A stretch of DNA of 64,000 nt from the NCBI GenBank assembly GCA_951813525.2, contig CATOTJ020000002.1, positions 196,954-260,953 of the forward strand, read 5' to 3'. The DNA is from an uncultured Limibaculum sp. GTDB lineage: Bacteria > Pseudomonadota > Alphaproteobacteria > Rhodobacterales > Rhodobacteraceae. The position numbers and the translations under genes were made by a program. Below the pieces are notes generated by a model. That model was given only the letters and a program-made list of their open reading frames with translations. It did no database searches and had not been told where the DNA came from. Within the stretch, counting starts at the first letter, position 1; every line of letters starts with the position of its first letter. This document shows, one piece after another, positions 7,809-64,000 of the stretch.

Positions 7809-7857
7809 AATGTTTTCCTCATAGTAGATAGTCCTTTCGTGACAATTCTATCATGAG

Positions 7858-9006: not shown

Positions 9007-9016
9007 AGGGCCGCAC

Positions 9017-39765: not shown

Positions 39766-41412
39766 TCATTCCTCGATGGGAACGATGATCGGTTCCGGCG
39801 CTGGTTTGCCGAGGATGAGATCGGAAGCCTTTTCTGCAATCATCATAGTGCCGGCTGCCAGGTTGGCAGACATCATCCTTGGCATGATCGATGCATCGAC
39901 CACACGCAGCGCATGGACACCGTGGACCCGCAGCTGATCGTCGACCACCGCGACCGGATCAGTTATGGGTGACATGCGGCAGGTCCCCATCAGGTGGAAA
40001 GTGCTGGTCCCGGTTTGGCGGGCCATATCCAGCAATTCGTCGTCAGTCTGAACGTCGTCACCTGGCTGTTCCTCACGGTCAATGAATGGGGCCATTGCTC
40101 GGGTGTGGATCAGGCTGCGCCCCAGGCGCATCGCGGCCACGACTGCGCGCCGATCGGCCTCATGCGCCAGGTAGTTTGGCTGAATGGCCGGTTTCTGAAA
40201 CGGGTCATCTGATCTTGAGCGGACGAAACCGCTGCTCTCGGGCCTGTGCTGCCAGGCCGCGAGCGTGCACCCCGGTGCTTCAGCCAGCACGCCGTGGCGG
40301 GTGGGATCGAAGCTTGCGGGTGTGAAGATGAACTGCAGGTCATTGCTTTTCGCCGCAGGATCCGAGTGCCAGAAGCCATAGACCATTGACGGATTCAGAT
40401 CGACGATGCTTTTTGCGCCGAAGACGTATTTCAGAATCTCCCAACCAAGGCGTGGGCCGCGCGAGATCTCGTTGAGTGTCTGGATCCCCTTTACTCGCGC
40501 CACGACGCGCGGCGCGATGTGGTCGCGCAAGTTTTCGCCGACGCCGGGCAGGTGGTGAACGGTCTCTATCCCCAGATCGTTCAACAGGTCGGTCGGCCCG
40601 ACGCCCGAAAGCTGCAGCAGTTGCGGTGAGTTCACCGCTCCGCTTGACAGGATCACTTCGCGATTGGCGCGCACGTGCTTTGGTGTGCCGCCGCGGCCGC
40701 CTTGGGAGTAAGCGACGCCGACGGCCTTTTTACCCTCGAAAAGCACCTTCGTCGCGAAAGCCCCGGTCACGACCGTCAGATTTCGCCGCGACCGCGCCGG
40801 TCGTAGAAAAGCACGCGCAGTGCTGACCCGGCGCCCGCCGCGCGCAGTCCGCTGGACATAGTTGATGCCCTCTTGCCGCGCGCCATTGTAGTCGGGATTG
40901 CGCGGGATCCCGAGTTCCGCAGCGCCGGCGATAAACGCGTCGGCGAGCGGATGCGTATAGAGCAAGGCCTCGACGGTCATCGGACCTTCGCGGCCCCGGA
41001 ACACATCGTCGCCCTGGCCAACCCAGCGTTCGCATCGCTTGAAATAAGGCAGAACGTCCGCGTATCCCCAGCCATGATTGCCCAACTGCGCCCACAGGTC
41101 ATAATCCAGGCGCTGGCCACGGTTGTAAATCATGCCGTTGATTGAACTGGATCCGCCCAACGTCTTGCCGCGAGGCACGGGGATCCGCCGCCCGTTAGTA
41201 TTTGCGCCTGGGTCCGCTTCGTACATCCAGTCGATTCGAGGGTTGCCAAGGTTCTTCACAAATCCCGACGGCAGATGGATATAGATGCTTCGATCACGAG
41301 GCCCCGCCTCGAGTAGGCAGACAGTATGCTTTCCACCCGCAGAAAGCCGGTTGGCGAGAATGCATCCGGCCGAGCCGGCACCGACGACAATATAGTCGAA
41401 CGTGTCTGCCAT
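39766..41412 (-). CDS. GMC oxidoreductase (choline dehydrogenase-like)
   Basis: GAGSAG, PRGKTLGGSSSING, GENLRDH, FHLMGTCRM, LRVVDAS. Confidence 0.9.
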   Translation of the reverse strand: MADTFDYIVVGAGSAGCILANRLSAGGKHTVCLLEAGPRDRSIYIHLPSGFVKNLGNPRIDWMYEADPGANTNGRRIPVPRGKTLGGSSSINGMIYNRGQRLDYDLWAQLGNHGWGYADVLPYFKRCERWVGQGDDVFRGREGPMTVEALLYTHPLADAFIAGAAELGIPRNPDYNGARQEGINYVQRTARGGRRVSTARAFLRPARSRRNLTVVTGAFATKVLFEGKKAVGVAYSQGGRGGTPKHVRANREVILSSGAVNSPQLLQLSGVGPTDLLNDLGIETVHHLPGVGENLRDHIAPRVVARVKGIQTLNEISRGPRLGWEILKYVFGAKSIVDLNPSMVYGFWHSDPAAKSNDLQFIFTPASFDPTRHGVLAEAPGCTLAAWQHRPESSGFVRSRSDDPFQKPAIQPNYLAHEADRRAVVAAMRLGRSLIHTRAMAPFIDREEQPGDDVQTDDELLDMARQTGTSTFHLMGTCRMSPITDPVAVVDDQLRVHGVHALRVVDASIMPRMMSANLAAGTMMIAEKASDLILGKPAPEPIIVPIEE

Positions 41413-42109: not shown

Positions 42110-43345
42110 ATGATACGGCGCTTTGTTACTATGGCCTCGACGGCTGGATTGCTGGCGGTACTGTCAGCGGGACCGGTCTCGGCGGATATCGCTGTCGTCG
42201 ATCCGGCAAGTATCGGTCTGGATCCGGCAAAGCTGGAAGACGTGCGAACGGCGTTGCGCCAGGATATCGCGGACGGGCGTGTGCCCGGAGCGGTCATGTT
42301 GATCGCACGCAAGGGCAAGGTTGGTTTTTTCGAAGCCGTCGGTCAGCAAGGTCCCGATGACACCACGCCGATGAGTTCGGACACGATCTTCCGGATTTAT
42401 TCAATGACCAAGCCGATCGTTTCGGTTGCGGCGATGAAATTGGTCGAACAGGGGCGCCTCGGTCTGGATGAACCGATCTCGACCTATATTCCGTTGTTTG
42501 CCGAGATGACCGTATTCCAGCAAGCGGGTGACACCTTTCTCATCAAGGAGGACGGCAGCCGCCCCGCCAACACGCAGATCACGGTTCGCGATTTGCTGCG
42601 GCACACGTCCGGGCTGATCTATGGGATATTCGACAAGGGAAGTCTGGGGCAGCTTTATACCGAGGCGGGTATTGCCGGATCGGATTTCGATCTGGACGAG
42701 CTGTCGTTCCGGATCTCGAAGATTCCGCTGCGCTTCGATCCGGGCACGTCCTGGCATTATTCCAGATCGACCGATGTGCTGGGTCATGTGATCGAACGCG
42801 CGACCGGGCTGACGCTGGATGTTGCGCTGAAGCAGCTGATCTTTGATCCGCTGGGGATGAAGGACACCGCCTTCTACCACGACAAGTCCCAGGCGGCGCG
42901 GATCGCTCAGCCGGTCGAACCGCTGTTTGATGTGACGGACCCCCAGCCGATGCTGTCCGGCGGCGGTGGACTGACCTCGACCATGGAGGATTATCTTCGG
43001 TTTGCGATGATGTTGCGCAATCGCGGCAGCCTGGACGGAGTTCAGATCATTCGGCCCGAAACCCTGGCTTTGATGACCACGAACCAGATCGAAGGCATGG
43101 ATCTGAAATATTTCTATCCAGGTGCGGCCTATGGTTTTGGCCTGGGCTTTGCCGTTCGCCTGACGGACGATGGCCCCTATCCGGGGACTGTCGGCGATTT
43201 CTGGTGGCGCGGGCTGGCGGGTACATATTTCTGGGTTGACCCGCAAAAAGATCTGTTTGCGATCTTCATGATCCAGGACCCGGCCAACCGGGTTCACTAT
43301 ACGGGCACGACGCGTAACTGGGTGTACAGCACGCTGAAGGACTGA
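42110..43345 (+). CDS. Exported serine hydrolase, beta-lactamase/EstB family
   Basis: Signal peptide, SMTK (SxxK), LLRHTSG, Y-S, GGGGL, WxGxAGT. Confidence 0.88.
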   Translation: MIRRFVTMASTAGLLAVLSAGPVSADIAVVDPASIGLDPAKLEDVRTALRQDIADGRVPGAVMLIARKGKVGFFEAVGQQGPDDTTPMSSDTIFRIYSMTKPIVSVAAMKLVEQGRLGLDEPISTYIPLFAEMTVFQQAGDTFLIKEDGSRPANTQITVRDLLRHTSGLIYGIFDKGSLGQLYTEAGIAGSDFDLDELSFRISKIPLRFDPGTSWHYSRSTDVLGHVIERATGLTLDVALKQLIFDPLGMKDTAFYHDKSQAARIAQPVEPLFDVTDPQPMLSGGGGLTSTMEDYLRFAMMLRNRGSLDGVQIIRPETLALMTTNQIEGMDLKYFYPGAAYGFGLGFAVRLTDDGPYPGTVGDFWWRGLAGTYFWVDPQKDLFAIFMIQDPANRVHYTGTTRNWVYSTLKD

Positions 43346-44323: not shown

Positions 44324-44618
44324 TCGCGCGGACCATATAACGCCATGCTGCCAAACGGAAGGTGATCGGCCGTCAAAGGGGGTCGATGTGCTGATCCACC
44401 GAATGCCGAGCGAGCCCCCGACGACAACGCCTTCCCGGTGGCCATCATTGCGGTCGGCGAGCAGTTTTTAGGGGGCGCCGACGCAACAGAGATGATGCGA
44501 GGGGCGCAAACGCACGCTCAAGCCCACCGATGGATTGCAAACACGGGTATCGTCTGAGCCGCCAGAAGGCTGAAGGGAAGCTGCACGGTCCTTACGCCGC
44601 AGTGGAAGTCCCGCTTTA

Positions 44619-45460
44619 GGCGGCGTCTTCATTTAGGGGGTTCCCAAACTGGTTGGGATTTGATTCAAGGTCGAAAACGGAGGTGATCTTGAGCAGACGA
44701 ACCCTGACGGACGCGCAATGGGCGCAGATTGAACCGCTTGTCCCCGGCAAAAAAGGCGACCGAGGGCGCACGGCGACAGACAACAGGCTTTTCCTTGATG
44801 CAATCCTGTGGTTGGCTCGTACAGCCTCGCCCTGGCGTGATCTTCCGCCTGAACTGGGCAACTGGCGGACCGCACATTGCCGGTTCCGGCGGTGGACACA
44901 TGCGGGCATTTGGGAGAGTCTTTTCAAAGCGTTAAGCGCTGATCCGGATTTCGAATACGTCCTTATCGATGCGACCATTTGCAAGGCCCATGCAGACGCC
45001 AGCGGCGCAAAAGGGGGGCTGAAACTCACGCAATCGGACGCTCCAAAGGCGGCCTGACCACGAAAATCCACGCCGCAGTCGACGCGCTTGGCCTGCCGAT
45101 CCGCTTCACGATTACGCCCGGTCAGTGGGGTGATTGCCCTCAGGCGTGCGGCTTGATCGAGGGGTTTTCGGGCGTCGGGCACGTCATGGCAGATGCGGCT
45201 TATGATGCTGATTACCTGCGGGCCTTCATCGTTGATGAACTTGATGCAAAGGCGCAGATCAAGCAAAATCCGACGCGAACAGCACAAAAGGCAATCGATT
45301 GGTCGCTCTACAAAGAACGCCACCTTGTCGAATGTTTCTTCAATAGGATCAAACGCTTCCGCCGCATAGCCCTACGGTGCGAAAAGACTATATCGTCCTT
45401 CCGAGCCTTCGTATCCCTCGCATGCACAATGGCCTGGCTCGCTTAAATGAAGACGCCGCC
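44619..45460 (+). mobile_element. IS5-family (IS427-like) element, intact
   Basis: Perfect 17-bp IR GGCGGCGTCTTCATTTA; TA flanks; orfA from 44689, A4G6 slip, orfB to 45446. Confidence 0.93.
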
Positions 45461-45951
45461 TAGACCAAAATACGTCTGATCTCTTGCAATCAGGCTTCAG
45501 CAATGACGTCGCAACAGCAATGATATCGCAACGCTGACCCTGGATGACGGTAAAACCTGGAGTGGATTTGGAGTTCCCGCGGTTTCGTGGACAGTTATTC
45601 GCTCGGCATCCGTAGCCCATAGGCAGCCTACAGTCCGAATTCGATCTATAAGAGAAATCCGAGGGCCGAGTGCCGGCGTCCGGGGTTGTTCGGAAGAGCG
45701 ACCCAAGCCGCGCGCTTCTGGCTGGCGATGTCGGCGGCGCAGGCCTCGGATTGGGCATCCAGCCAATTGAACTCTTGATCCAGACCGTGTTCCAGATGAC
45801 CGCTGCCCATTAACTCAGAGCTAATGTCCTCTTCTCGGAGCCAACATCATCGCCATCGGGTGTGGACCGATCGGGCTTGCTGGACTAACGTCCGTGCTCT
45901 GCGAGCCTGAAACGGCTGCTATTGAATGAACGCATAAGACAGGGAGTAACT

Positions 45952-47517
45952 ATGAAACATGCTAGATTTCTCGCTGCGTCCGTCGCAACGCTTTTCTTGG
46001 CGGGCGCTGCTGCGCAAGCAGAGAACGTATTGCGTTGGACCAGCCAGGGCGATGCCCTGACGCTTGATCCGCACTCTCAGAACGAAGGCCCGACGAACGC
46101 GATGAACGGCACCATCTACGAGGCGCTGGTCACCCGCGATGCCTCGTTGGCTTTGCGTCCGGAATTGGCTGAAAGCTGGACCGCGGCAGACGATGGCTGG
46201 ACTTTCAAGCTGCGCAAAGGCGTGAAATTCCACGGCGGCGAGGCATTCACTGCAGAAGATGTGGTGTTCTCGTTTGCGCGCGCCAATCTTGAATCGTCCG
46301 ATTTCAAAGAGCAGGCCAAAAATGTCGTCCGCGTCGAAGTGATCGACGATTATACGGTCAAGCTGATAACCGATGGGGCGAACCCGATCCTGCCCAACCA
46401 GTTGACCGGTATCCTGATCATGGACTCCGGCTGGGCCAAGGCCAACAATGTCGAGGTGCCGCAGGACTTCAAGGCGAAGGAAGAAACCTTCGCTGTGCGC
46501 AACACCAACGGGACCGGTCCCTTCATGCTGGTCAGCCGCGCGCCCGATGAAGAGACCGTCCTGGTACGCAACGCGGAATGGTGGGGTAACGGCGAATTCC
46601 CGGGCAATGTCGATAAGATCGTCTATCGCCCGATCGGCAATGCCGCGACCCGTGTTGCAGCACTGCTGTCCGGTGAGGTCGATTTCGTCCTCGACCCGCC
46701 GCTGCAGGATCTGAAGCGCATCGAAGGCGCCGATGGCCTCAAAATCTCCACCGTTGCCCAGATCCGGTCGATCTTCTTCGGCATGGACCAGGGTGTGGAA
46801 GAGCTGCGCTCATCAGACGTCAAAGGCAAGAACCCGTTCAAGGACGCGCGCGTGCGTGAAGCCTTCAACCTTGCCATCGACAAGGAAGCCATCAAGCGTG
46901 TCGTGATGGAGGGTCTTTCCTTCCCGACCGGCATGATCACGCCTCCGGGTGTGTTGGGCAACACATCAGATAACGATGCGCCCTATGGCTTCGATGTCGC
47001 CAAGGCCAAGGCTCTGTTGGCGGAAGCGGGCTATGGCGAAGGTTTCTCGATCCAGCTTGATTGCCCGAACAACCGCTACAACAATGACGAAAAGATCTGT
47101 CAGGCTGCGGTTGCGATGCTGGCCAAAATCGGCGTCAAGGTCAGCCTGGATGCGATTCCGAAGGCTCAGCACTTCCCCAAGATCCAGAACCGGACCTCGG
47201 ACTTTTACATGCTGGGTTGGGGCGTGCCGACATTGGACAGCCACTATGTGTTCTCCTACCTGCTGGAAGGCGAAGGATCGTGGAATGCGACCGGCTATTC
47301 CAATGCACGCGTCAACGAGATCACCAAGGTGATCGCCGCCGAGACCGACATCGAGAAGCGTACCGCGCTGATCGGCGAGGCCTGGGGGATCATCAAGGAT
47401 GACATGCCTTATGTGCCGATCCATCACCAGGTGATCGCGTGGGGCATGGCCGACAATTTGGATATCCCGATTGCAGCTGATGACGCGATGCGTCCCCGGT
47501 TTGCGGTAATGAAGTAA
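45952..47517 (+). CDS. ABC transporter solute-binding protein, family 5 (Dpp/Opp type)
   Basis: Signal peptide, TLDPH, IYEALV, LRKGVKFH, GTGPF. Confidence 0.92.
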   Translation: MKHARFLAASVATLFLAGAAAQAENVLRWTSQGDALTLDPHSQNEGPTNAMNGTIYEALVTRDASLALRPELAESWTAADDGWTFKLRKGVKFHGGEAFTAEDVVFSFARANLESSDFKEQAKNVVRVEVIDDYTVKLITDGANPILPNQLTGILIMDSGWAKANNVEVPQDFKAKEETFAVRNTNGTGPFMLVSRAPDEETVLVRNAEWWGNGEFPGNVDKIVYRPIGNAATRVAALLSGEVDFVLDPPLQDLKRIEGADGLKISTVAQIRSIFFGMDQGVEELRSSDVKGKNPFKDARVREAFNLAIDKEAIKRVVMEGLSFPTGMITPPGVLGNTSDNDAPYGFDVAKAKALLAEAGYGEGFSIQLDCPNNRYNNDEKICQAAVAMLAKIGVKVSLDAIPKAQHFPKIQNRTSDFYMLGWGVPTLDSHYVFSYLLEGEGSWNATGYSNARVNEITKVIAAETDIEKRTALIGEAWGIIKDDMPYVPIHHQVIAWGMADNLDIPIAADDAMRPRFAVMK

Positions 47518-47526
47518 GCAAAAAAC

Positions 47527-47552
47527 TGCCGCGCCGGTTTGCTGGCGCGGCA
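47527..47552 (+). terminator. Hairpin after SBP gene (stabiliser/attenuator)
   Basis: TGCCGCGCC-N8-GGCGCGGCA. Confidence 0.45.
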
Positions 47553-47635
47553 TCTGCAACTTGCATCTGGCAGCTCGCCCACGGGCGGTTCGAATAGCGA
47601 GCTAGGCCCAGTCCGAGCACAAGGCAAAGCCACTC

Positions 47636-48601
47636 ATGTTAGCCTTCATCCTCAGACGGCTCGGCCAATCGGTCTTGGTCATGGCCGTTGTGTCGGCGAT
47701 TTCTTTTTCGCTGTTCAACTTCGTGGGCGACCCGGTCAACAATATGGTTGGCCAGGATGCCACCCGCGAACAGCGGGTACAAATACGCGAAGATCTGGGC
47801 CTGAACGATCCGGTCTTTACCCAGTACGCCCGTTTCATGGGCAATGTTCTGCAAGGCGATTTCGGGCTGAGTTATCGCATTAAGCGCCCTGTCGATCAGC
47901 TGATCATGGAGCGCCTTCCCGCAACGCTGGAACTGGTTTTTGTATCTGCAATCATCGCTTTGGTCGCGGGCATCGGTCTGGGGGTTTACACCGGCATTCG
48001 GCGAAAATCCTGGATTTCGCGGCTAATCCTGTCCAGTTCGCTGGTGGGCGTTTCGTTGCCGACCTTCATCATCGGTATATCCCTGATTTATGTCTTTGCG
48101 GTCTGGCTGCGATGGCTTCCATCGTCGGGCCGGGCAGGTGCCATTGAAATCGGCTGGTGGAAAACGTCCTTCCTGACCGTTGACGGCTGGCGTGCGATCA
48201 TACTGCCCGCGATCACGTTATCGCTGTTCCAGTTGACGCTAATTCTGCGCCTGGTTCGGACCGAGATGCTGGAGGTCATGCGGACGGACTATGTCAAGTT
48301 CGCCCGCGCGCGCGGGCTGTCCGAACGCGCAATCAACTTTACCCACGCGCTGCGAAACACTCTGGTCCCCGTGATCACTGTCATCGGGTTGAACATCGGC
48401 GGTCTGATCGCTTTCTCGGTCATTACCGAAACCGTGTTTCAATGGCCGGGAACAGGTCTGATGTTTATCCAGGCCGTCGATTTCGTCGACGTGCCGATCA
48501 TGGCGGCCTATCTGGTGTTCGTCGCGCTGCTGTTCGTCGTTATCAATCTGGTGGTCGACTTGCTTTACGTCTTCGTCGACCCGCGCATCAGGCTGTCCTA
48601 A
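47636..48601 (+). CDS. ABC permease (DppB-like)
   Basis: GDFGLSY, ARARGLSE EAA loop, ETVFQWPG, VDPRI. Confidence 0.92.
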   Translation: MLAFILRRLGQSVLVMAVVSAISFSLFNFVGDPVNNMVGQDATREQRVQIREDLGLNDPVFTQYARFMGNVLQGDFGLSYRIKRPVDQLIMERLPATLELVFVSAIIALVAGIGLGVYTGIRRKSWISRLILSSSLVGVSLPTFIIGISLIYVFAVWLRWLPSSGRAGAIEIGWWKTSFLTVDGWRAIILPAITLSLFQLTLILRLVRTEMLEVMRTDYVKFARARGLSERAINFTHALRNTLVPVITVIGLNIGGLIAFSVITETVFQWPGTGLMFIQAVDFVDVPIMAAYLVFVALLFVVINLVVDLLYVFVDPRIRLS

Positions 48602-48602
48602 A

Positions 48603-49528
48603 ATGAGCGAGAAGCCCCCCACCCGCTGGCAACGTCTGAAGGACAACGACATCGTCTGGTCGTTCTTGCATTCGCCCGGCGCAATGATCGCCGCTGCAAT
48701 AACCGTCCTGGCGATCGCAGCCTGTTTCATGGCGCCGCTGATCGCACCGTTCGATCCGTTCAACCCGGCGGACATTTCTCTTTGGGATGGCAAGCTGCCA
48801 CCCGTTTGGGTGGAAGGCAGCAATCCCAAGTTCCTGTTGGGCACGGACAACCAGGGCCGGGATATGCTGTCGACCATCCTTTACGGAGGGCGATTGTCGA
48901 TCATTGTCGGGCTGGCGGCAGTCTTTCTGGGCATGTTGTTGGGTGTCTCGCTTGGGGTTATCTCGGGCTATGTGGGCGGCGCCACAGACTCGATAATCAT
49001 GCGAATTGCTGACGTTCAATTGACGATCCCCGGTATTCTGCTTGCCATTCTGATCAACGGGATCGGGCGGGCAGTGTTACCGTTGGAGATGCGCGAGGAT
49101 TTTGCGATTTACGTGGTTATTCTGGCCATCGGCCTGAGCGACTGGCCGCAATTTGCCCGAGTTGCACGGGGTGCAACGCTTGTCGAGGCCAACAAGGAAT
49201 ACGTTCAGGCGGCGCGCGTCATCGACCTGCCGGGCTGGCTGATCATGACCCGCCACATTGTGCCCAATGTGATGCGCCCGGTTCTGGTGCTGGCGACCAT
49301 CGGGTTGGCTCTTGCGATCATCGCTGAGGCGACGCTCAGCTTTCTCGGTCAGGGCATCCCACCGACGACGCCATCGCTGGGCACACTGATCCGGGTCGGC
49401 AACGAATACCTGTTCTCCGGTCTCTGGTGGATCACTTTCTTCCCGGCCATCGCACTCGTTGTGCTCGTCTTTGCGGTCAATCTGCTGGGTGACTGGATGC
49501 GCGACGCCCTGAACCCGAAGCTGCGCTG

Positions 49529-49529
<1 letters not shown>
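48603..49529 (+). CDS. ABC permease (DppC-like)
   Basis: LLGTDNQGRD, RHIVPN, AEATLSFLG, DALNPK. Confidence 0.92.
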
Positions 49530-51235
<1,706 letters not shown>

Positions 51236-51422
51236 CCATGCGCCCGGCTCATTGCGAACACCCGCGATCTTTGTAAGCGATGAAAGTCATCGGACGAAAG
51301 GTCGACCGGTGGCGCCGCAATCCCGGCCGATGGGTGCCGATGTCTGGAATATGCACGGCTCTTCGTTTATCGTCATTGGCCACGTAGCTGTCGTTTTTCG
51401 CCAAGATGATGCCCCCAAGATA

Positions 51423-52475
51423 ATGTCCACAAACTCAATTCTGATCATAGTTACTCCAGACTTCAATCTGGCGACGACGACGGCCTTTATCGATCCTTGC
51501 CGGGCTGCGAACTACCTGGAAGGCCGGGCTCTCTTTGAATGGCAACTGGTCTCTTCGAAGGGCGGGGTTCTGTTTGCCAGCAATGGAATGGGGATCGAAA
51601 CCGCACCGCTTGCAGAGGCGAACGTGCCCGCGGACATCGTCGTTGTGTCTTCGAGTTGGGCACCCGAGAGCCATTCGTCACCCGCGCTGCGCGCCGTCCT
51701 CAGACGGACGGCCAGGCAGGTCAGCGTCATCGCGGGTTTGGACACCGGTGCCTTCATCCTGGCCGACGCGGGGCTGCTATCGGGACGGCGGGCGACGGTA
51801 CATTACGAGCATATCGATGCGCTCATCGAACTTTACGCGGATATCGACGTGACCGAAGATTTGTTCGTCGCGGAGGAGGGGCGGATGACCTGTTGCGGCG
51901 GGGAGGCTTCAGCGGACCTGGCGCTTCAGATCCTGCGCGAGAGTTATGGCGAAACGGTCGCGAACTCGGCAGCGCGGTATGTGTTTCACCAGTCCATGCG
52001 GACCTATGGCATGTCGCAACTGCCGAGCCTCACCGAACCATTGGGTCATAGCGTTCCCGGCACGGTCCGCGCGGCGATCCGGCTGATGGAGGCGCATCTG
52101 GAAGATCCGTTGACGATCCCCGAGATCAGCACAGGCACCGGTATTTCGCAGCGGCAGCTTAACCGCCTGTTCGCCCGGCATCTGGGCAAGACCACAGCTC
52201 TTTACTATCGGGACATTCGGTTGGACCGGGCGCGCGGGCTGGTGACCCAGACCGAAATGCCGTTGACGGAAGTTGCCGTCGCCTCGGGTTTTCGCAGTCA
52301 GGTCACATTCAGCCGGGCCTATCGCGAACGGTTTGGCATGCCGCCCAGTCAGGACCGCACCGAGGGCCGGGTCCCGTTCGAGTTTCGGGCCTGGCCGATG
52401 CATCGCCGACCGTCTGCCCGCCCGTCCGCCCGCCCGTCCGCCCGCCCGTCCGCCCGAATGTCCGATTTCGACTGA
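51423..52475 (+). CDS. GlxA-family (DJ-1 domain + AraC) regulator
   Basis: DTGAFILADAGLL, ATVH, TCCGG, C-terminal AraC HTH. Confidence 0.9.
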   Translation: MSTNSILIIVTPDFNLATTTAFIDPCRAANYLEGRALFEWQLVSSKGGVLFASNGMGIETAPLAEANVPADIVVVSSSWAPESHSSPALRAVLRRTARQVSVIAGLDTGAFILADAGLLSGRRATVHYEHIDALIELYADIDVTEDLFVAEEGRMTCCGGEASADLALQILRESYGETVANSAARYVFHQSMRTYGMSQLPSLTEPLGHSVPGTVRAAIRLMEAHLEDPLTIPEISTGTGISQRQLNRLFARHLGKTTALYYRDIRLDRARGLVTQTEMPLTEVAVASGFRSQVTFSRAYRERFGMPPSQDRTEGRVPFEFRAWPMHRRPSARPSARPSARPSARMSDFD

Positions 52476-52488
52476 TTTCTGTCCGATT
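52459..52488 (+). promoter_or_regulatory. Candidate AraC/GlxA operator: TGTCCGATT direct repeat, 21-bp period, upstream of Rieske gene
   Basis: TGTCCGATT at 52459 and 52480. Confidence 0.5.
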
Positions 52489-52560
52489 ATGCATAGCCGA
52501 ACCTGCCGATCGGCGGAAATCTAACGAGGTTCATATCGCCCAGCATTCGCGGAGTGTGCC

Positions 52561-53700
52561 ATGACCCTACCGATTTCGCCTGAGGAATTGACCCGCATCC
52601 GGCGTGGCTATGACCCGGACCCGGCAAAGTCCCTGTCGCTGGCTGCCGAAGCCTATACCGAGCAACGTTGGTATCAGCAGGATCTGGATGCTGTCTTCGC
52701 ACGGTCATGGCAGTGGGTGTGTCACGTCGAGAAACTGCGAACGCCAGGTTCGTATCTGGCGACCGAGGTTGCCGGACGGCCAATCGCCATCCTGCGCGAT
52801 CGCGACGGTGTTTTGCGGGCGTTCTACAATGTCTGCAAGCACCGCGCGCACCATCTGTTGCAGGGCGAGGGCGAGACGACACGGATTATGTGCCCTTATC
52901 ACGCCTGGGTTTATGATCTGACCGGGCAACTGCGCCGCGCGCCGGAAACCGAAAATCTGGTCGGGTTCGACCCTGGCGAAATCTGCCTGGATGCCGTGCA
53001 GGTCGGGGAATTTTGCGGCTTCATCTATGTCAATCTCGACCCTGATGCCGCACCGCTGGCCGAACAGTCCGGGGATCTGGCGGCCGAGATCCTGCATTGG
53101 GCGCCCGATGTGGGCGATCTGACCTTTGGCCACCGGTTGACCTATGACATTCGGACCAACTGGAAGAATGTTGTCGACAATTTTTTGGAGTGTTACCACT
53201 GCCCGACCGCGCACAAGGATTTCTGCACCCTGGTCGATATGGACACCTACAAGGTGACCACGCACGGGATCTATTCCAGCCATATGGCCGAGGCGGGCAA
53301 GGGCAACAACGCGGCCTATGACGTGTCGAACGCCACGGTGCGGACCCACGCGGTGTGGTGGTTGTGGCCGACAACCTGCCTGATGCGGTATCCGGGCCGG
53401 TCCAGCATGATCGTCCTGAACATCATTCCGGCCGGGCCCGACCGCACGCTGGAGACGTATGATTTCTTTCTTCAGACGCCGGAACCCGACGAGATGGAGC
53501 GCGAGGCCATCCGTTATCTGGACGAAGTTCTGCAAGTCGAAGACATCGGCTTGGTTGAAAGCATTCAGCGCGGAATGGCGACACCGGCGTTCCAGCAGGG
53601 CCGGATCGTGCATGACCCGGACGGGTCCGGCAAATCCGAGCATGCGTTGCACCACTTCCATGGCCTGGTGCTGGACGCCTATGCAGGGGCGGCGTCATGA
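52561..53700 (+). CDS. Rieske oxygenase alpha subunit (quaternary-amine type)
   Basis: CKHRAH..CPYHAW; NWKNVVDNFLECYHCPTAH. Confidence 0.9.
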   Translation: MTLPISPEELTRIRRGYDPDPAKSLSLAAEAYTEQRWYQQDLDAVFARSWQWVCHVEKLRTPGSYLATEVAGRPIAILRDRDGVLRAFYNVCKHRAHHLLQGEGETTRIMCPYHAWVYDLTGQLRRAPETENLVGFDPGEICLDAVQVGEFCGFIYVNLDPDAAPLAEQSGDLAAEILHWAPDVGDLTFGHRLTYDIRTNWKNVVDNFLECYHCPTAHKDFCTLVDMDTYKVTTHGIYSSHMAEAGKGNNAAYDVSNATVRTHAVWWLWPTTCLMRYPGRSSMIVLNIIPAGPDRTLETYDFFLQTPEPDEMEREAIRYLDEVLQVEDIGLVESIQRGMATPAFQQGRIVHDPDGSGKSEHALHHFHGLVLDAYAGAAS

Positions 53701-54488
53701 CCGGGCGGCTGGACGGCAAAACCGCCTTTGTCACCGGCGGCTGCGGTGGGATCGGCCGGGCCATCTGTGCGCGCTTTGCGGCAGAAGGCGCGCGGGTGAT
53801 GGCGGGTGACGTTGCAGACTGGCCCGACGCCCCCGACGGCGTGCGGGTCGTGAAATATGACGTGACATCGGAAGAGGCCGCTAAAGACGGCATGGCCCGG
53901 ATTGCCCGGCACTGGGGACATCTCGATGTGCTGGTTAATGCGGCTGGGATCGAGATCGAGAAGACGATCGAGGACACCACGCTGGAGGAATGGCGCCGGT
54001 CCTTTGCGATCAACGTCGATGGCATGTTCTTGACATCGAAATACGCACTGCCGGTTCTGCGCGAAGCCGCGTCCAGGAACCCCACAGGGGCCAGCGTGAT
54101 CAACTTTGGGTCCTATGACGGGTTCATCGCCGATCCGGGGCTGGCCGCTTACTGCGCCACCAAGGGCGCGGTCCATGCGCTGACCAAAGCCATGGCATGC
54201 GACCATGGGCCGGAAGGCATCCGCGTGAATGCGATCTGCCCGGGTTATGTGGACACCCCCATGCTGCAATCGTTCTTTACGGGCGATGGCTCTGGCGGCG
54301 GCGGGCAGAACATCGATCAGCTGCAGCAGGCCGTGCGCGATGTGCATCCGATGCGGACCTATGGCACGCCGGAGGACATCGCGAACCTCGTGACGTGGCT
54401 CGCCTCGGACGAAGCGCGTTATGCTGCCGGGCAATTGTGGGTTCTGGACGGCGGGCTTTCCGCCCAGGTTCAGCAGATGAAGTTGTAG
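53697..54488 (+). CDS. Short-chain dehydrogenase/reductase
   Basis: TGGCGGIG, NAAG, YCATK, NAICPG. Confidence 0.9.
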   Translation: MTGRLDGKTAFVTGGCGGIGRAICARFAAEGARVMAGDVADWPDAPDGVRVVKYDVTSEEAAKDGMARIARHWGHLDVLVNAAGIEIEKTIEDTTLEEWRRSFAINVDGMFLTSKYALPVLREAASRNPTGASVINFGSYDGFIADPGLAAYCATKGAVHALTKAMACDHGPEGIRVNAICPGYVDTPMLQSFFTGDGSGGGGQNIDQLQQAVRDVHPMRTYGTPEDIANLVTWLASDEARYAAGQLWVLDGGLSAQVQQMKL

Positions 54489-54508
54489 GGTGCGTGCACG
54501 CACCCTAC
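54485..54508. repeat. Perfect 24-bp GTAG-type (REP-like) palindrome
   Basis: GTAGGGTGCGTGCACGCACCCTAC. Confidence 0.7.
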
Positions 54509-54526
54509 GCCCAGAAGGAACGTAAG

Positions 54527-55456
54527 ATGCCCAAACCTGTGATCATCACCTGCGCGCCAACCGGCGGAATTCACACCCCGACCATGTCGCCCCACCTGCC
54601 GATCATGCCTGATCAGATCGTTGCGGCGAGTGTCGAGGCCGCCGAGGCCGGTGCATCTGTCATCCATTTGCACGCCCGCGACCCGGAGACCGGCAAGCCC
54701 GATCCGCGCGCCGAGACGTTCATGCAGTTCTTGCCGCGCATCCGCCAGCAGACCGATGCGGTGGTCAACGTCTCGACAGGCGGCGGGCTGGGCATGACCC
54801 GGGAGGAACGCTTGCGTGCCGCCTTGACCGCCAGCCCTGAAATGGCGTCGCTGAACGTTGGATCGCTGAATTTCGGTATCTTTCCGATGCTGGAGAAGTA
54901 CGAGAACTGGCAGCACGAGTGGGAACCTGCATTCCTGGAAATGACCCGCGACTTCATTTTCCGCAACACGTTCGCCGATATCGAGTTCATCCTGAAAGAG
55001 TTGGGCGAGGGCCATGGCACCCGGTTTGAATTTGAATGCTACGACCTCGGCCATCTCTATAATCTGGCGTATTTCGTCGACCAGGGCATGGTGAAGCCGC
55101 CGTTCTTTGTGCAGATGGTCTTCGGCGTTCTGGGCGGGGTCGGCGCGGATCTGGACAACCTGATGCACCTGCACACCATCGCCAACAAGCTGTTCGGCGG
55201 GGAGTACGAATGGTCGGTGCTGGCCGCAGGCCGCCATCAGATGCCGTTCGCGACCCAGGCCGCCATGCTGGGCGGCAACCTGCGAGTCGGGTTGGAGGAC
55301 AGCCTTTTCATCGGCAAGGGCGAACTTGCAACCTCGAACGCACAGCAAGTCACGCGCATTCGAACCATCATCGAAAATCTGGGCCTGAAGGTCGCCACCC
55401 CGGCGGAGGCGCGTAGGCGGCTGGCGCTGAAGGGCGGCGATCAGGTGGCGTTCTAG
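54527..55456 (+). CDS. BKACE beta-keto acid cleavage enzyme (DUF849)
   Basis: IITCAPTG, HLHARD, STGG, EMASLN, EFECYD, RVGLED. Confidence 0.92.
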   Translation: MPKPVIITCAPTGGIHTPTMSPHLPIMPDQIVAASVEAAEAGASVIHLHARDPETGKPDPRAETFMQFLPRIRQQTDAVVNVSTGGGLGMTREERLRAALTASPEMASLNVGSLNFGIFPMLEKYENWQHEWEPAFLEMTRDFIFRNTFADIEFILKELGEGHGTRFEFECYDLGHLYNLAYFVDQGMVKPPFFVQMVFGVLGGVGADLDNLMHLHTIANKLFGGEYEWSVLAAGRHQMPFATQAAMLGGNLRVGLEDSLFIGKGELATSNAQQVTRIRTIIENLGLKVATPAEARRRLALKGGDQVAF

Positions 55457-55466
55457 GGAGGGAGCC

Positions 55467-56240
55467 ATGCAAACTAAACTATCGGTCAGTGGCGATGGTG
55501 GCCCACGGATGGGACTGCAGGGCAAACATACGGTTGTCACCGGCGGGCGCCAGGGGATCGGCCGCGCCATCGTCGAGGCCTTTCTGCGCGAAGGTGCGTC
55601 GGTTGTGACCTGCGGGCGGGGCGAAGCCGAGGTGCCCGGCGCGCTCTGGGTCACGGCAGATGTCTCGGAAACCGCCCAGGCAGCCGCGTTGATCGAAGCC
55701 GCGGGAGAGATCGACATTCTGGTGAACAACGCGGGCGTGCAGGTTGAAAAAACGGTCGCAGACTCGAAGGATGAGGACTGGGATCTGGTCATCGGTGCGA
55801 ACTGCCGGGGCGTATTCAACTGCTGCCGCGCCGCAATTCCCAGAATGCGCGCCGGTGCATCGATCATCAATATCGGCTCGATCTCCGGCACCGTCGCCGA
55901 CCCGTCCATGGCCCTTTACAATGCCTCCAAGGCGTTCGTGCACGGATTGACCCGATCGATCGCCGTCGATCACGGGCCGGAGATAAGGTGCAATGCCATC
56001 TGTCCGGGATGGATCGAAACAGGGATGCTGGACGCAGGGTTCGACCTGGCGGGTGACCCCGATGCCGCGCGTAAGGATGCGATCGCACGGCACGCTGTGC
56101 GCCGCTTCGGCAATCCCGAAGACATCGCCTCGATGGCGATCTGGCTCGCCTCGGACGAGGCCGGGTTCGCGTCCGGCCAGATGTTCACCGTCGATGGCGG
56201 CATGACCGCTGCGTCACCGCTTAATCCGGGATTATTCTGA
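55467..56240 (+). CDS. Short-chain dehydrogenase/reductase
   Basis: TGGRQGIG, NNAG, YNASK, CNAICPG. Confidence 0.9.
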   Translation: MQTKLSVSGDGGPRMGLQGKHTVVTGGRQGIGRAIVEAFLREGASVVTCGRGEAEVPGALWVTADVSETAQAAALIEAAGEIDILVNNAGVQVEKTVADSKDEDWDLVIGANCRGVFNCCRAAIPRMRAGASIINIGSISGTVADPSMALYNASKAFVHGLTRSIAVDHGPEIRCNAICPGWIETGMLDAGFDLAGDPDAARKDAIARHAVRRFGNPEDIASMAIWLASDEAGFASGQMFTVDGGMTAASPLNPGLF

Positions 56241-57166
56241 TGAAAGAGACATATGCCTCGCTGGGCACGGGTGTAATCGGCGCCTCCTGGACCGCGCTGT
56301 TCCTGGCACATGGCCATCCTGTACGCGCCTGCGATCCCGCAGACGGCGCCGAAGAGCGATTGCAGGCCTATATCGATACCGCCTGGCCGGTGATGGAGGA
56401 GCTGGGCCTGACCGGGAACGGCACGCGCGATGCGGTGACGTTTTGCGCATCAGCGGCCGAGGCTGTCGATGGCGCCGCCTTCATTCAGGAAAGCGTTCCC
56501 GAGCGCGTGGCGATCAAACACGCGATTTATGCCGAGATCGAAGAGGCGATGGCGCCGGACGCCATTCTTTCCTCCTCGGCTTCCGGATTGACGCTGTCAC
56601 AGATGCAAACCGGGTGGCGCGATCCGTCGCGCATCGTCCTCGGGCACCCTTTCAACCCGCCGCACCTGATCCCGTTGGTCGAGATCATGGGAAACGAACG
56701 CACCGCCCCTGGCGTGCTGGAACGGGCCGAGGCGATCTATGCCGCACTGGGCAAGGTTACCATCCGCATGATGAAGGAAGTGCCGGGCCATGTTGCCAAC
56801 CGGCTGCAGGCTGCGCTGTGGCGCGAGGCGATCAGTCTGGTGACCGAAGGCGTGACCACGGTCGAAGACGTCGACAAGGCCATCTGGGCCGGGCCGGGCG
56901 TGCGTTGGGCAGCGATGGGGCCGAATATGATTTGGCACCTTGCCGCGGGTCCAGGCGGCCTGAAGGCCTATATGGACCACTTCGCCGAAAGCTTTCACGG
57001 CTGGTGGGACGGGATGGGCGACCCCCGGCTGGACGAAGAAACCCAGAGGGTTCTGTCCGAAGGGGTTCTGGCCTCGGCCAACGGGCGTAGCCAGCAGGAT
57101 TTGGGCACTGAACGCGACGCATTGGTCAGCGCAATCCTAAAGGCGACCAACGGGGTGCGGGCTTGA
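56240..57166 (+). CDS. 3-hydroxyacyl-CoA dehydrogenase family (carnitine/gulonate 3-dehydrogenase-like)
   Basis: GTGVIGASW, QESVPE, SSSASG, HPFNPPHLIPLVE, GHVANRLQ. Confidence 0.88.
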   Translation: MKETYASLGTGVIGASWTALFLAHGHPVRACDPADGAEERLQAYIDTAWPVMEELGLTGNGTRDAVTFCASAAEAVDGAAFIQESVPERVAIKHAIYAEIEEAMAPDAILSSSASGLTLSQMQTGWRDPSRIVLGHPFNPPHLIPLVEIMGNERTAPGVLERAEAIYAALGKVTIRMMKEVPGHVANRLQAALWREAISLVTEGVTTVEDVDKAIWAGPGVRWAAMGPNMIWHLAAGPGGLKAYMDHFAESFHGWWDGMGDPRLDEETQRVLSEGVLASANGRSQQDLGTERDALVSAILKATNGVRA

Positions 57167-57298
57167 GCGGACTTGGGGCTGGAGGTGGGTAAGGTCCGAT
57201 GTCTGCTTGGCCGCCGCTTTGAAAGCGTCGTTCGCCGGCACCCAGAAACCGCGCAGGATCGGTCCGTAGCCATAAGGCTTTGAAACTTTAGGGCTTCT

Positions 57299-57374
<76 letters not shown>

Positions 57375-57421
57375 GCCGAAGGGATGTGCATCTAGCGTAG
57401 AGTTCGGGGGGTTTCAAGGGG

Positions 57422-57952
57422 TCAGGGGTCTTTCTCTTCGTGGAAGATTGCCGAGGTCATGCTTTGAACGTGGCGTTGGAAGGCTGCAAGGTCGCCTTCT
57501 TCGATTTCGGTCACTTCCAGGAAGGCGTGTGCTTTCCATTCGCGGCCTTTGCAGATCACGAAGTGCATGGAAAAACCTTTTTCCGGCAAGGCGTTAGTTC
57601 GGGTTTCGCGTGTGAAGCCGCAATCACGCGAGGCGTTGGGCGGGCCCTGGGGGTTGAAGTGCAGGACGATGCGCCAGGGCTGTTCCGCGCCGCCGGTCGG
57701 CGTCAGATAGAAGGTGATTTCCTGGGGCGCCTCGGGCGGGACCTTCAGCGCCGCGGTCAGGTCGGCATCGGTGATCCGGCGAAACGGCGTGCCATGGATT
57801 TCGACCGGGATGCCGCGGTCGTCCTGGAGCCGCCAGAGATCCTTGAGAACCAAGTCCGGGCGGCGGTCGACCTTGCTGATCACGGCCGGTTCGTCGCAAG
57901 CGGAGAGGCCGAAAAGGAGCGCTATAGCAATGAGTTGTCTTGGAAACATCAT
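57422..57952 (-). CDS. Hypothetical lipoprotein
   Basis: MMFPRQLIAIALLFGLSAC lipobox; start overlaps upstream DMT stop. Confidence 0.7.
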   Translation of the reverse strand: MMFPRQLIAIALLFGLSACDEPAVISKVDRRPDLVLKDLWRLQDDRGIPVEIHGTPFRRITDADLTAALKVPPEAPQEITFYLTPTGGAEQPWRIVLHFNPQGPPNASRDCGFTRETRTNALPEKGFSMHFVICKGREWKAHAFLEVTEIEEGDLAAFQRHVQSMTSAIFHEEKDP

Positions 57953-58842
57953 GTCGGATTCTGGCTGTATTGCCGCTCGCGGTGGAAGACGTAAAGACCA
58001 GACGCAATGATGATCGCAGCACCGGTCCAGGTCAACAGGTCGGGAAAGTCCGAGAAGACCCACCAGCCGAACAGCGTGGCCGAGACGATTTCGAGGTATT
58101 GCAGCGGGGCGGCCATCGAGGCGTCGGCGCGGGCCAGCGCGTGGACCAGCATCTGATGGGTCATAACGGCGAGCGCCCCCATGCCAAGATAGAGCCACAG
58201 ATCACCCGCCGCAGGTATCGACAGTTTGGCAACCGAAAGCTGGTTTAGATGCCCCAAGACGCTGAAAACGCATAGAAAAACCAGGGCGGCGATTCCGGTC
58301 CAGAGTTGCAGCGCCAGCTTGTTGGGTCCTGTCGCCAAGGTCTTGGTGACCAGCATATAGCAGGCGAAGAATGCGGCTGCGCCCAGTGGCAGGATCGCGG
58401 TTGGGCCGTATTCATCCCAGTTCGGGCGGATCACGATCAGCGCGCCAACCAATCCGACCACGACGGCGGCCATCCGGCGCCAGCCGATTTTCTCGCCCAG
58501 GATCAGAACGGAAAGGACCGTTAGAACAAGAGGTTCGACGAAGAATATGGCAATTGCGTTGACGATCGGCATGACCGCAAAGGCTGCGTTGATGCAGACC
58601 AGCGCGAGCGCCAGGAAAAGACCCGCCAGCCAATGTGCCCGGCGCGGACCGGACCATTGCCCCATGACCATGACGATGGGCAGCAAAAGGGCGGTCTGCA
58701 CCAAAAAGCGCCCCAGCGTGACCTGCGCAGGCGATGCGTTGGCGGTCAGCAGCTTGGCAAAGACATCCATGCCCGGCGCGATGAACATCGCCAGTGTCAT
58801 GATCATCAGACCGGTTTGCGGTGTTTCGGGCAGCGCGCGCAT
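57949..58842 (-). CDS. DMT/EamA-family transporter
   Basis: Ten hydrophobic segments; IFFVEPL, APLQYLEI. Confidence 0.88.
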   Translation of the reverse strand: MRALPETPQTGLMIMTLAMFIAPGMDVFAKLLTANASPAQVTLGRFLVQTALLLPIVMVMGQWSGPRRAHWLAGLFLALALVCINAAFAVMPIVNAIAIFFVEPLVLTVLSVLILGEKIGWRRMAAVVVGLVGALIVIRPNWDEYGPTAILPLGAAAFFACYMLVTKTLATGPNKLALQLWTGIAALVFLCVFSVLGHLNQLSVAKLSIPAAGDLWLYLGMGALAVMTHQMLVHALARADASMAAPLQYLEIVSATLFGWWVFSDFPDLLTWTGAAIIIASGLYVFHRERQYSQNPT

Positions 58843-62689: not shown

Positions 62690-64000
62690 TTAGCGCAGGA
62701 ACTGTTCGTCGAACGGGAACTTGGTCAGGTTTTCGACGCCCGTTTCGGTGATCAGCACCTGATCTTCCAGCTTGATCGAGAAGTCGCCGCCTTCATGGGC
62801 GATCAGCGCCTCGACGCACAGCGTCATGCCTGGGACCAGGACGTGATCAAAATCGCCGGCGCGCCAGTCCTGCGGGTATTTGATCGACGGCCATTCGTCG
62901 CAAAGGCCGACGCCGTGGATCTTGACGCCGTACCGGCTTTTGACGAACTCGTCGGCAAGCTGGTGTCCGCCGAAGGTGATTTCCTTGAAGCTTTTGCCGG
63001 GGGCCAGGATTTCCGTGTTTTCGACAATATGGTCGTGGGCGACCCGGTAGAGGCGCTTCATTTCCGCCGTTGGCTCGCCATCGCCGACCCAGACGGTGCG
63101 GGAGATGTCGGCGCAGATGCCGTAGGGCCCCACCAGGTCGGTGTCGTAGGCCAGTATTTCACCGTTCTGGAGCACGCGGGGTCCGCATTCCTGGAACCAG
63201 GGGTTGGTGCGCGGGCCCGACGACAGCAGCCGGCATTCGATCCATTCCCCGCCGCGGCGAATGTTTTCGGCGTGCAGGACCGACCAGACATCGTCTTCGG
63301 TTTTGCCCGGCGCGGCGGCATCTTGCATCAGTTGGCAGGCGATTTCGGTTGAATGCATGGCGCAGCGCATGGCCAGGATCTCGTCCGCGCCTTTGACCGC
63401 GCGCACGCGCTCGGTCAGTTCCTCGCCTGCTTCGATGATGAAGCCGCGATCCATGAAGGCGCGGTAGCCGGGGATGGCGATCTTGTCGATTGCCAGGCGC
63501 CGGTTCGGGGCATGGGCGTCCATCAGCTTGCCGATGACACCGGCAAAGTCCTTGGCGTCGTCATCTTCCATGTCGCCATTGATGAAGTAGAACATCGACG
63601 CGCCGCCGCGCACTTCGTCGACCAGCGGATTGAAATCGGACAGCACCTTGTCCGGCCCGCCCTTGAAGTCGAACAGCACCATATAGCCGTCGGCGCCGAC
63701 GAAACAGGCGCGGAACGGGTTGTGGGAGTTCCAGACCTGCATATTCGTTGAATCGGTGGCAAACCGGATGTTGAGCGGGTCAAAGAGCAGTGCGCCGCCA
63801 TAGCCGCGTTCATTGATCCCCTGGACCAGCCGGGCGTGGCGGTCGGCGCGCATCTGGGCGAGGTTCGGAGGGGTCAGACCTGCTTCGGCCCATTCGGCGA
63901 AGGCCAGCGGCGTTGGCCCGATTTCGGCCCGGTCGTTATCATCGGGGCTGCCGTCCGGGCGCGTGCGGGTCGGGTCGATCTTGCGGGTAGGGCTGTGGTC
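62690..64000 (-). CDS. dddP: DMSP lyase DddP (M24 metallopeptidase fold); start just beyond window
   Basis: TRKIDP, EIGPT.LAF.EW, FDPLNIRFATDSTNMQ, RGGEWIE.RLL, GPRTNPWFQECG, HGVGLCDEWP, KLEDQVLITE. Confidence 0.9.
   Translation of the reverse strand, partial: DHSPTRKIDPTRTRPDGSPDDNDRAEIGPTPLAFAEWAEAGLTPPNLAQMRADRHARLVQGINERGYGGALLFDPLNIRFATDSTNMQVWNSHNPFRACFVGADGYMVLFDFKGGPDKVLSDFNPLVDEVRGGASMFYFINGDMEDDDAKDFAGVIGKLMDAHAPNRRLAIDKIAIPGYRAFMDRGFIIEAGEELTERVRAVKGADEILAMRCAMHSTEIACQLMQDAAAPGKTEDDVWSVLHAENIRRGGEWIECRLLSSGPRTNPWFQECGPRVLQNGEILAYDTDLVGPYGICADISRTVWVGDGEPTAEMKRLYRVAHDHIVENTEILAPGKSFKEITFGGHQLADEFVKSRYGVKIHGVGLCDEWPSIKYPQDWRAGDFDHVLVPGMTLCVEALIAHEGGDFSIKLEDQVLITETGVENLTKFPFDEQFLR

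Follow-up and report, generated by a model that had tools for sequence, protein, structure and literature searches.

Introduction

Trimethylamine and its precursors tie the turnover of marine osmolytes to methane and climate-active gases. Among the Rieske oxygenases, clade Va, in which the residue at the cation-π position is aromatic, comprises CntA, choline monooxygenase, and OxyBAC (PMC7948474; PMC10952381). Tyr or Phe at position 203 of CntA marks this clade and Asn the demethylase clade Vb (PMC7948474). Open-ocean metagenomes were reported to contain CntA-like genes (PMC5537630), and a later study was unable to find marine organisms in which cntA and cntB both have good homologues (PMC9321204). 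Within the BKACE family, separate groups have been described for neutral (G1) and positively charged (G5) substrates, the enzymes being promiscuous in vitro (PMC4922564). BKACE15 takes neutral β-keto acids, its physiological role being given as not known (PMC11961710), and the NetSyn preprint mentions a genomic context of G1 BKACEs that is still to be discovered. In this study, we analyze a stretch of 64,000 nucleotides (the window) from contig CATOTJ020000002.1 of an uncultured Limibaculum species, in which ten genes at 45952-57166 encode a Dpp-type ATP-binding cassette (ABC) importer, a GlxA-family regulator, a CntA-like Rieske oxygenase, two short-chain dehydrogenases/reductases (SDRs), a BKACE, and a carnitine-dehydrogenase-like enzyme of the HCDH family.

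We consider it probable, from gene content and conservation, that these genes form two modules: a catabolic operon (module B, 51423-57166), activated by the GlxA-family regulator and directed at a choline- or carnitine-related trimethylammonium compound, and an importer independent of it (module A, 45952-51235). Judged by its predicted genes, module B is a reduced variant of a conserved cluster whose fuller copies add a sulfatase, an aldehyde dehydrogenase (ALDH), a reductase, a thioesterase, and a solute-binding protein (SBP) of the choline/betaine type. We regard the catabolic cluster as genuine and as an uncharacterised variation on the known catabolism of quaternary amines.

Gene content and organization

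The listing of open reading frames (ORFs) and family scans confirmed ten genes on the + strand:

45952-47517, + strand: SBP_bac_5 binding protein; start ATG with GGGAG ribosome site; PF00496, 297.5 bits
47636-48601 and 48603-49529, + strand: ABC permeases, DppB-like and DppC-like; BPD_transp_1 with BPD_transp_1_N and OppC_N
49529-51235, + strand: fused double ATPase, DppD/F-like; two ABC_tran stretches and oligo_HPY
51423-52475 (ORF 51252-52475), + strand: GlxA-family (GbdR/CdhR-like) AraC regulator; DJ-1_PfpI and HTH_18
52561-53700, + strand: Rieske oxygenase, group Va, CntA-like; PDB 6y8j, 240 bits
53697-54488, + strand: SDR1, classical SDR; adh_short_C2, 190.8 bits
54524-55456, + strand: BKACE; PF05853, 348.6 bits; start at M110 of ORF 54197
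55467-56240, + strand: SDR2, classical SDR; 41-42% identity to SDR1
56240-57166, + strand: 3HCDH-family enzyme, carnitine-dehydrogenase/lambda-crystallin-like; 3HCDH_N and 3HCDH

The original prediction, made from the sequence alone, had described a complete cluster of mostly overlapping genes for uptake, regulation, and catabolism, without Rieske reductase or thioesterase. Its ten gene families and their common orientation are borne out, but only three of the nine junctions overlap. One further junction is a 1-nt gap, and the remaining gaps measure 118, 187, 85, 35, and 10 nt, those before the regulator and Rieske genes being 187 nt (16 nt with a TTG start) and 85 nt, respectively. The regulator probably starts at ATG 51423, as suggested by the sequence and by the point at which the alignment with GbdR begins. 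All ten genes are present, but the word "complete" fails in that the window copy is without a reductase and without the sulfatase and ALDH of most relatives, and in that the ABC importer is not a conserved part. The statement on reductase and thioesterase stands, since tblastn with the VanB-type reductase and the thioesterase of the related Pseudomonas plasmid (see below) gave matches only on C3 and at C2:113030, all outside the window. The junction between the ATPase and GlxA genes, and with it the assembly, was confirmed by bridging contigs of two DNA-type public runs. A scan of 45300-58000 for promoters and terminators gave no excess over expectation (promoter-like, 1 vs 3.7 expected; terminator-like, 9 vs 10.7 expected).

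Conservation of the catabolic cluster

A scan of species-representative genomes yielded 551 stretches with a relative of the Rieske gene, the best 80 of which were kept; family counts come from clustering all ORFs of 81 loci, i.e. these 80 and the window. The order GlxA-Rieske-SDR-(BKACE)-SDR-HCDH recurs throughout the best 80, which are mostly labelled Rhodobacterales or Hyphomicrobiales, and the cluster is also present on a Pseudomonas plasmid. The Rieske family occurs in 81 of the 81 loci, followed by SDR (79), GlxA (68, beside the Rieske gene), HCDH (67), sulfatase (59), BKACE (58), and ALDH (41); neither sulfatase nor ALDH is found in the window copy. Among the 67 loci that reach the last gene, the arrangement Rieske-sulfatase-SDR-BKACE-ALDH-SDR-HCDH was found in 22, the shorter Rieske-SDR-BKACE-SDR-HCDH in eight, including the window, and a Rieske gene (with or without sulfatase) followed only by two SDRs and HCDH, without BKACE and ALDH, in 11; one further locus has ALDH but no BKACE.

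The gene of the linked sulfatase immediately follows or immediately precedes the Rieske gene; the protein contains the choline-sulfatase C-terminal domain, matches BetC of S. meliloti with 496 bits, and passes the choline-sulfatase equivalog (695 vs 433). The linked ALDH, located between BKACE and SDR2, passes the aminobutyraldehyde dehydrogenase subfamily (662 vs 615). The fullest copy is carried by a conjugative Pseudomonas plasmid (L081), where it lies beside an IS6 element and comprises GlxA, Rieske, SDR, BKACE, ALDH, SDR, HCDH, a VanB-type reductase, a thioesterase, and a choline ABC binding protein. The binding protein passes the choline SBP subfamily (440 vs 379), and the match of the thioesterase is confined to the C-terminal domain of fused carnitine dehydrogenases. 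In six loci, a ferredoxin reductase follows the cluster instead of the VanB type, with a 2Fe-2S ferredoxin gene next in both loci checked, and an OpuAC-type ABC system lies near the cluster in 12-16 of the 80 loci. The parts absent from the window (reductase, thioesterase) thus exist in relatives, which points to a trimethylammonium substrate.

The host of the L081 plasmid is an Antarctic Pseudomonas, and the 73% identity between the Rieske protein of the plasmid and those of Alphaproteobacteria suggests horizontal transfer. A record labelled Oceanobacillus (L020) also contains the cluster, with a Rieske protein 78% identical to that of the window; either a Firmicute acquired the cluster or the assembly is contaminated or mislabelled.

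We found no paper that assigns the catabolic cluster in full-text searches, one of which possibly mishandled hyphenated wording; the supplement of the NetSyn preprint, which lay outside these searches, may describe the cluster. Together with the Va signature of the oxygenase, the GbdR-like regulator, and the choline-sulfatase, choline SBP, and thioesterase of the relatives, this supports the earlier proposal that the catabolic route is undescribed, its substrate probably being an onium compound that resembles carnitine or choline.

The Rieske oxygenase

The Rieske protein aligns over its full length with carnitine monooxygenase CntA (PDB 6y8j) and combines the features of clade Va: CxH…CxxH Rieske ligands (CKH…CPYH in this protein), a 2-His-1-carboxylate iron site, a bridging Glu, and an aromatic residue at CntA position 203. 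In the alignment, H213, H218, D328, and E210 correspond to CntA H208, H213, D323, and E205, which upholds the bridging Glu noted from the sequence alone, and the Cys pair (CntA C206/C209), Y225, and Y295 are likewise kept. The position of CntA Y203 is occupied by Phe208, a Phe in all 81 orthologues, and four of the seven pocket residues of CntA are changed (F258T, N270M, Y315L, and F319L). Across the 81 orthologues the compared positions, including the changed ones, are invariant or nearly so.

Identity is 78-89% among the 120 best database matches and 73-77% on plasmids of Rhizobium, Roseovarius, Shinella, Ruegeria, Mesorhizobium, and one Pseudomonas; from these 73-89% among orthologues it drops to 33-38% for CntA and YeaW. 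By these comparisons, the enzyme is assigned to group Va as a lineage separate from CntA. CntA proper was considered and rejected because of the residues T/M/L/L at F258/N270/Y315/F319, the lack of a reductase gene in the window, and an identity of at most 38%. Some orthologues are labelled choline monooxygenase by JGI, and public annotation reads "ring-hydroxylating". Conserved at 73-89%, not accompanied by a constant reductase, and sharing no more than 38% identity with CntA, this Rieske family may therefore be counted wrongly as cntA, or its members may keep the annotation "ring-hydroxylating dioxygenase".

The regulator and its candidate operator

The regulator has the DJ-1/PfpI plus AraC helix-turn-helix architecture and scores 214.9 bits on the GbdR model NF052371 (cutoff 480), which identifies it by sequence as a GlxA/GbdR-like family member and not GbdR itself. 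The 3' end of its gene contains an in-frame 12-nt tandem repeat (approximately 52411-52456) that adds a repetitive Pro/Ser/Ala/Arg tail, and contigs of the public runs break at this repeat. The gene is followed by a candidate operator:

52460-52496, + strand: candidate operator, two direct repeats GTCCGATT… with 21-nt spacing, between the GlxA and Rieske genes

At the equivalent position, relatives have similar repeats (GGCGA-N5-GYNNAR), some with 21-nt spacing. We infer that the regulator binds the predicted repeats before the Rieske gene, with a pattern that was picked after the sites had been seen. A loose form of the pattern, GKCSRNNNNNGYNNAR, shows no enrichment in the window (31 matches vs 26.3 expected). 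A tighter one, likewise chosen post hoc, recovers both sites in front of the Rieske gene together with a similar half-site at 45633, about 300 nt upstream of the SBP gene; the half-site pattern has 12 matches vs 6.7 expected, and five of 100 shuffles reached 12. This is too weak to argue for co-regulation of the ABC genes with the catabolic operon.

BKACE and the dehydrogenases

With its family domain (PF05853) and the catalytic Glu and Arg, the BKACE is a member of the family; its structural matches are PDB 3e02 (425 bits) and 8rio (377.6 bits). In the alignment, BKACE15 and the window enzyme share the catalytic E171 and R254 (BKACE15 numbering), the HLH motif, and the Glu of the GLED motif; we take the latter two to provide the zinc ligands. 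On NCBIfam NF053538 (3,5-dioxohexanoate:acetyl-CoA acetone transferase) it scores 505.9 bits (cutoff 430), which favours a predicted assignment to the neutral-substrate type and not to the enzymes for positively charged substrates. The "carnitine logic" of the original prediction, as far as it would mean cleavage of a charged β-keto acid, is not supported, given this placement above the cutoff of a neutral-substrate family.

The best NCBIfam matches of the HCDH-family enzyme are carnitine dehydrogenases, but on the L-carnitine dehydrogenase model NF005471 it stays below the cutoff (267.7 bits vs 414); its match to lambda-crystallin is 143 bits. For SDR1 and SDR2, the closest PDB structures are generic R-alcohol, glucose, and hydroxybutyrate dehydrogenases, and no close characterised relative or substrate clue emerged from them.

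The ABC importer

With an SBP_bac_5 protein, two BPD_transp_1 permeases, and an ATPase with oligo_HPY, module A belongs to the Dpp/Opp-type importers. The SBP reaches no NCBIfam equivalog cutoff (best GsiB, 167 vs 594), and the fused ATPase scores 544.6 on GsiA (cutoff 1077). The nearest solved structure of the SBP is the glutathione-binding protein YliB/GsiB (143.7 bits), which gives no substrate clue. Upstream of the importer genes lies a mobile element:

44617-45462, no strand assigned: multicopy insertion sequence, 846 bp, directly upstream of the ABC operon; DDE_Tnp_1 ORF 44979-45446

At least 14 copies at ≥99.9% identity were found among the first 25 of 35 blastn rows, and the contig of this element has a depth of about 1390 vs about 80 for the flanks. 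The insertion sequence marks a rearranged neighbourhood. A composite transposon was considered and rejected, since an insertion sequence is present on the left flank only, and on the right the similarity to other sites is limited to a repeat of 50-80 nt. The 30 kb preceding the element are full of mobile-element genes. At 11000-39700 of the window these include IS21 IstB, IS66, rve integrase, DDE transposases, IS110, a serine recombinase, a ParB-methylase, and a terminase fragment.

The main alternative treats the ten genes as one unit for uptake, regulation, and catabolism, in which the family-5 transporter imports the same onium substrate. We regard this as rather unlikely, although it has the adjacency and common orientation of the genes, the contigs spanning the ATPase-GlxA junction, the operator-like half-site upstream of the SBP gene, and one relative (L002, same DNA as L112) with a distant family-5 ABC system (33-44% identity, divergent, 3.4 kb upstream of the cluster) on its side; on these grounds, the importer may have been recruited locally as the uptake system. 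The half-site pattern, however, is post hoc, with the counts given above, and no match to the SBP with ≥50% identity lies beside the cluster in any of the 80 related loci, where OpuAC- or choline-type SBPs are linked instead. Among 41 related genomes, orthologues of the SBP (82-84%) occur in two of the same genus, G020 and G005, in four-gene ABC operons 82-85% identical to that of the window; in neither does the cluster follow, and both genomes carry the Rieske cluster on another contig. In G020, the ABC operon follows an ornithine-cyclodeaminase-family gene and the cluster is divergent from an OpuAC-type SBP gene; the cluster of G005 is the L002 locus. The kinship of the SBP with glutathione-binding GsiB/YliB also speaks against a single unit.

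The two-module reading is preferred because the importer is unlinked in the 80 loci, lies on separate contigs in G020 and G005, and in the window has an insertion sequence upstream and a 187-nt gap before the GlxA gene. The ABC operon is, we conclude, a separate module that came to lie beside the cluster through rearrangement and the ligand of which is probably peptide- or opine-like. The use of a family-5 transporter as a substrate clue, part of the original prediction, is not supported: orthologues lie away from the cluster and linked transporters are of the OpuAC type, so the neighbouring transporter should not guide substrate guesses for the window.

Proposed pathway and alternatives

In the mechanism that we propose for module B, the regulator would sense the onium compound and bind the two direct repeats before the Rieske gene. 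The oxygenase would depend for electrons on a reductase from another locus; at other sites, the genome has genes for VanB-type reductases (36-37%) and a ferredoxin reductase (54%). With the N+ group bound at Phe208 through a cation-π contact, the enzyme would oxidise a carbon adjacent to this group and, like CntA, would most likely yield trimethylamine and an aldehyde. Oxidation or epimerisation of hydroxyl groups by the two SDRs and the carnitine-dehydrogenase-like enzyme would then lead to a 3-keto acid, the acyl part of which BKACE would pass to acetyl-CoA with formation of acetoacetate and an acyl-CoA. Removal of trimethylamine before the BKACE step is favoured by the membership of BKACE in a neutral-substrate family. 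The released trimethylamine could be used, since the genome encodes a trimethylamine N-oxide demethylase above cutoff with an FMO-like gene nearby.

Leading candidates for the substrate, as judged from the genes present, are choline-O-sulfate or choline derivatives and carnitine-like hydroxy acids. Because most relatives add a choline-sulfatase, a sulfate ester would be a usual entry substrate. A BetC homologue (65% identity) is encoded on contig C1 of the genome. Searches at E≤1e-80 in two genomes of the same genus gave no BetC homologue other than the cluster-linked sulfatase; the linked enzyme may therefore simply be the organism's choline sulfatase.

Several points weigh against this mechanism. 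All functional assignments, for every copy of the cluster, are inferred from sequence. The neutral-substrate assignment is not proof, since BKACEs are promiscuous in vitro and the characterised homologue is only about 60% identical. The carnitine-type thioesterase and amino-aldehyde-type ALDH of the relatives fit N+-bearing intermediates, which argues against early loss of trimethylamine; this loss before BKACE and N+-bearing intermediates may both be true, for different steps. The oxygenase could instead hydroxylate as plant choline monooxygenase does. We offer only tentatively, as possible and short of probable, the view that the cluster represents an aerobic route of marine Rhodobacterales and rhizobia that has so far gone unrecognised, in which trimethylamine is stripped from choline-O-sulfate-derived or carnitine-like hydroxy-onium compounds and the carbon skeleton proceeds via the neutral-type BKACE to acetoacetate. 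If true, it would be a new oxygen-dependent source of marine trimethylamine and could account for part of the "CntA-like" genes of ocean metagenomes.

An ordinary conversion of carnitine to glycine betaine, with the HCDH-family enzyme as carnitine dehydrogenase, BKACE cleaving dehydrocarnitine, an SDR for D-carnitine, and the Rieske enzyme as betaine demethylase or γ-butyrobetaine hydroxylase, is improbable. The best matches of the HCDH-family enzyme, the fusion-domain match of the relatives' thioesterase, and the GbdR/CdhR-like regulator would fit it, but the score of 268 vs 414 and the neutral-substrate BKACE do not, the Rieske protein has Phe and not the Asn of demethylase clade Vb (PMC7948474), the four differing residues of the CntA pocket are fixed across orthologues, and the linkage of choline-sulfatase is left unexplained. 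The genome moreover contains two further BKACE/HCDH loci, one (L097, C2:634000-651000) with a GlxA regulator, a betaine-aldehyde-dehydrogenase (BADH)-like ALDH, a GbcA-like Rieske gene, and a GcvT-like gene, and the other (L098, C3:326000-339000) with a BCCT transporter and a thioesterase. The organism has, as predicted from these gene sets, three paralogous onium-type modules, and the presence of the other two means that the window cluster is neither the sole nor the canonical carnitine-type system.

A BKACE is also used in the phloroglucinol route. That the cluster serves no onium pathway and degrades a neutral aromatic or polyketide-like, phloroglucinol-like compound via 3,5-dioxohexanoate has the equivalog match of the BKACE, the context of BKACE15, which suggests aromatic degradation (PMC11961710), and the "ring-hydroxylating" annotation in its favour, but is highly improbable given the group V hallmarks of the Rieske protein, the lack of a β-subunit or cyclohydrolase gene in the window cluster or two annotated plasmid copies, and the regulator and the choline-sulfatase, choline SBP, OpuAC ABC, and carnitine-type thioesterase of the relatives, all of which point to an onium compound.

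Other genes of the window

At 6852-11172, a LysR regulator gene (- strand) is followed by a second group-V-like Rieske oxygenase gene (7858-9006), the product of which is 32% identical to that of 52561-53700 and scores 147 bits on the GbcA model, below cutoff; two enolase-superfamily genes come next, the second with 369 bits on cis-3-hydroxy-L-proline dehydratase, also below cutoff. This region resembles, as we assume, clusters for the catabolism of proline betaine and hydroxyproline betaine. A gene at 62690-63853 (- strand; the ORF may continue to the window end) matches the dimethylsulfoniopropionate lyase DddP equivalog with 606 bits (cutoff 600), and a 56% identical paralogue lies just past the window (C2:264741-265895). 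A GMC oxidoreductase near choline dehydrogenase is encoded at 39766-41412 (- strand; 573.5 bits vs subfamily cutoff 605), followed by a β-lactamase-fold hydrolase (42110-43345) and an EamA transporter. No link of this region to the cluster was found in the 80 related loci.

Comparison with known systems

Identification of the substrate would fill a gap in the catabolism of choline-sulfate- and carnitine-type osmolytes and assign a physiological role to the BKACE clade of the neutral type. The importer shares SBP_bac_5, two permeases, and an oligo_HPY ATPase with the Dpp/Opp/Gsi peptide-type importers, but reaches none of their specific equivalog cutoffs. In common with the betICBA systems of S. 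meliloti and Ruegeria pomeroyi (PMC4744692), relatives of the cluster have a BetC-family sulfatase, above equivalog cutoff, encoded beside the Rieske gene. The cluster differs from these systems in that it has no BetA/BetB/BetI set, a Rieske oxygenase standing in the place of BetA, and in that the window copy is without the sulfatase.

With BKACE15 of Paracoccus denitrificans (PDB 8rio/8rip/9hnf), the window BKACE shares NF053538 by score and the residues E171 and R254, at an identity of about 60% as estimated by eye from the alignment. CntA and YeaW resemble the Rieske oxygenase in full-length homology, Rieske and iron ligands, bridging Glu, Cys pair, aromatic residue at position 203, Y225, and Y295; differences are the identity of 33-38%, the pocket (F258T/N270M/Y315L/F319L in the window protein), and the surroundings. 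CntA of Acinetobacter is encoded next to a malic-semialdehyde dehydrogenase set, whereas the neighbours of the window gene are SDRs, BKACE, and HCDH, with no cntB-type reductase beside it. The carnitine operon of Pseudomonas aeruginosa, presumably caiX-cdhCAB with cdhR, likewise combines a GlxA-family regulator, an HCDH-family dehydrogenase, and a BKACE, and relatives of the cluster add an OpuAC-type SBP and a thioesterase; relative to this operon, the cluster has an additional Rieske oxygenase and two SDRs, a BKACE of subgroup NF053538, an HCDH-family enzyme below the carnitine dehydrogenase cutoff, and an often linked choline-sulfatase.

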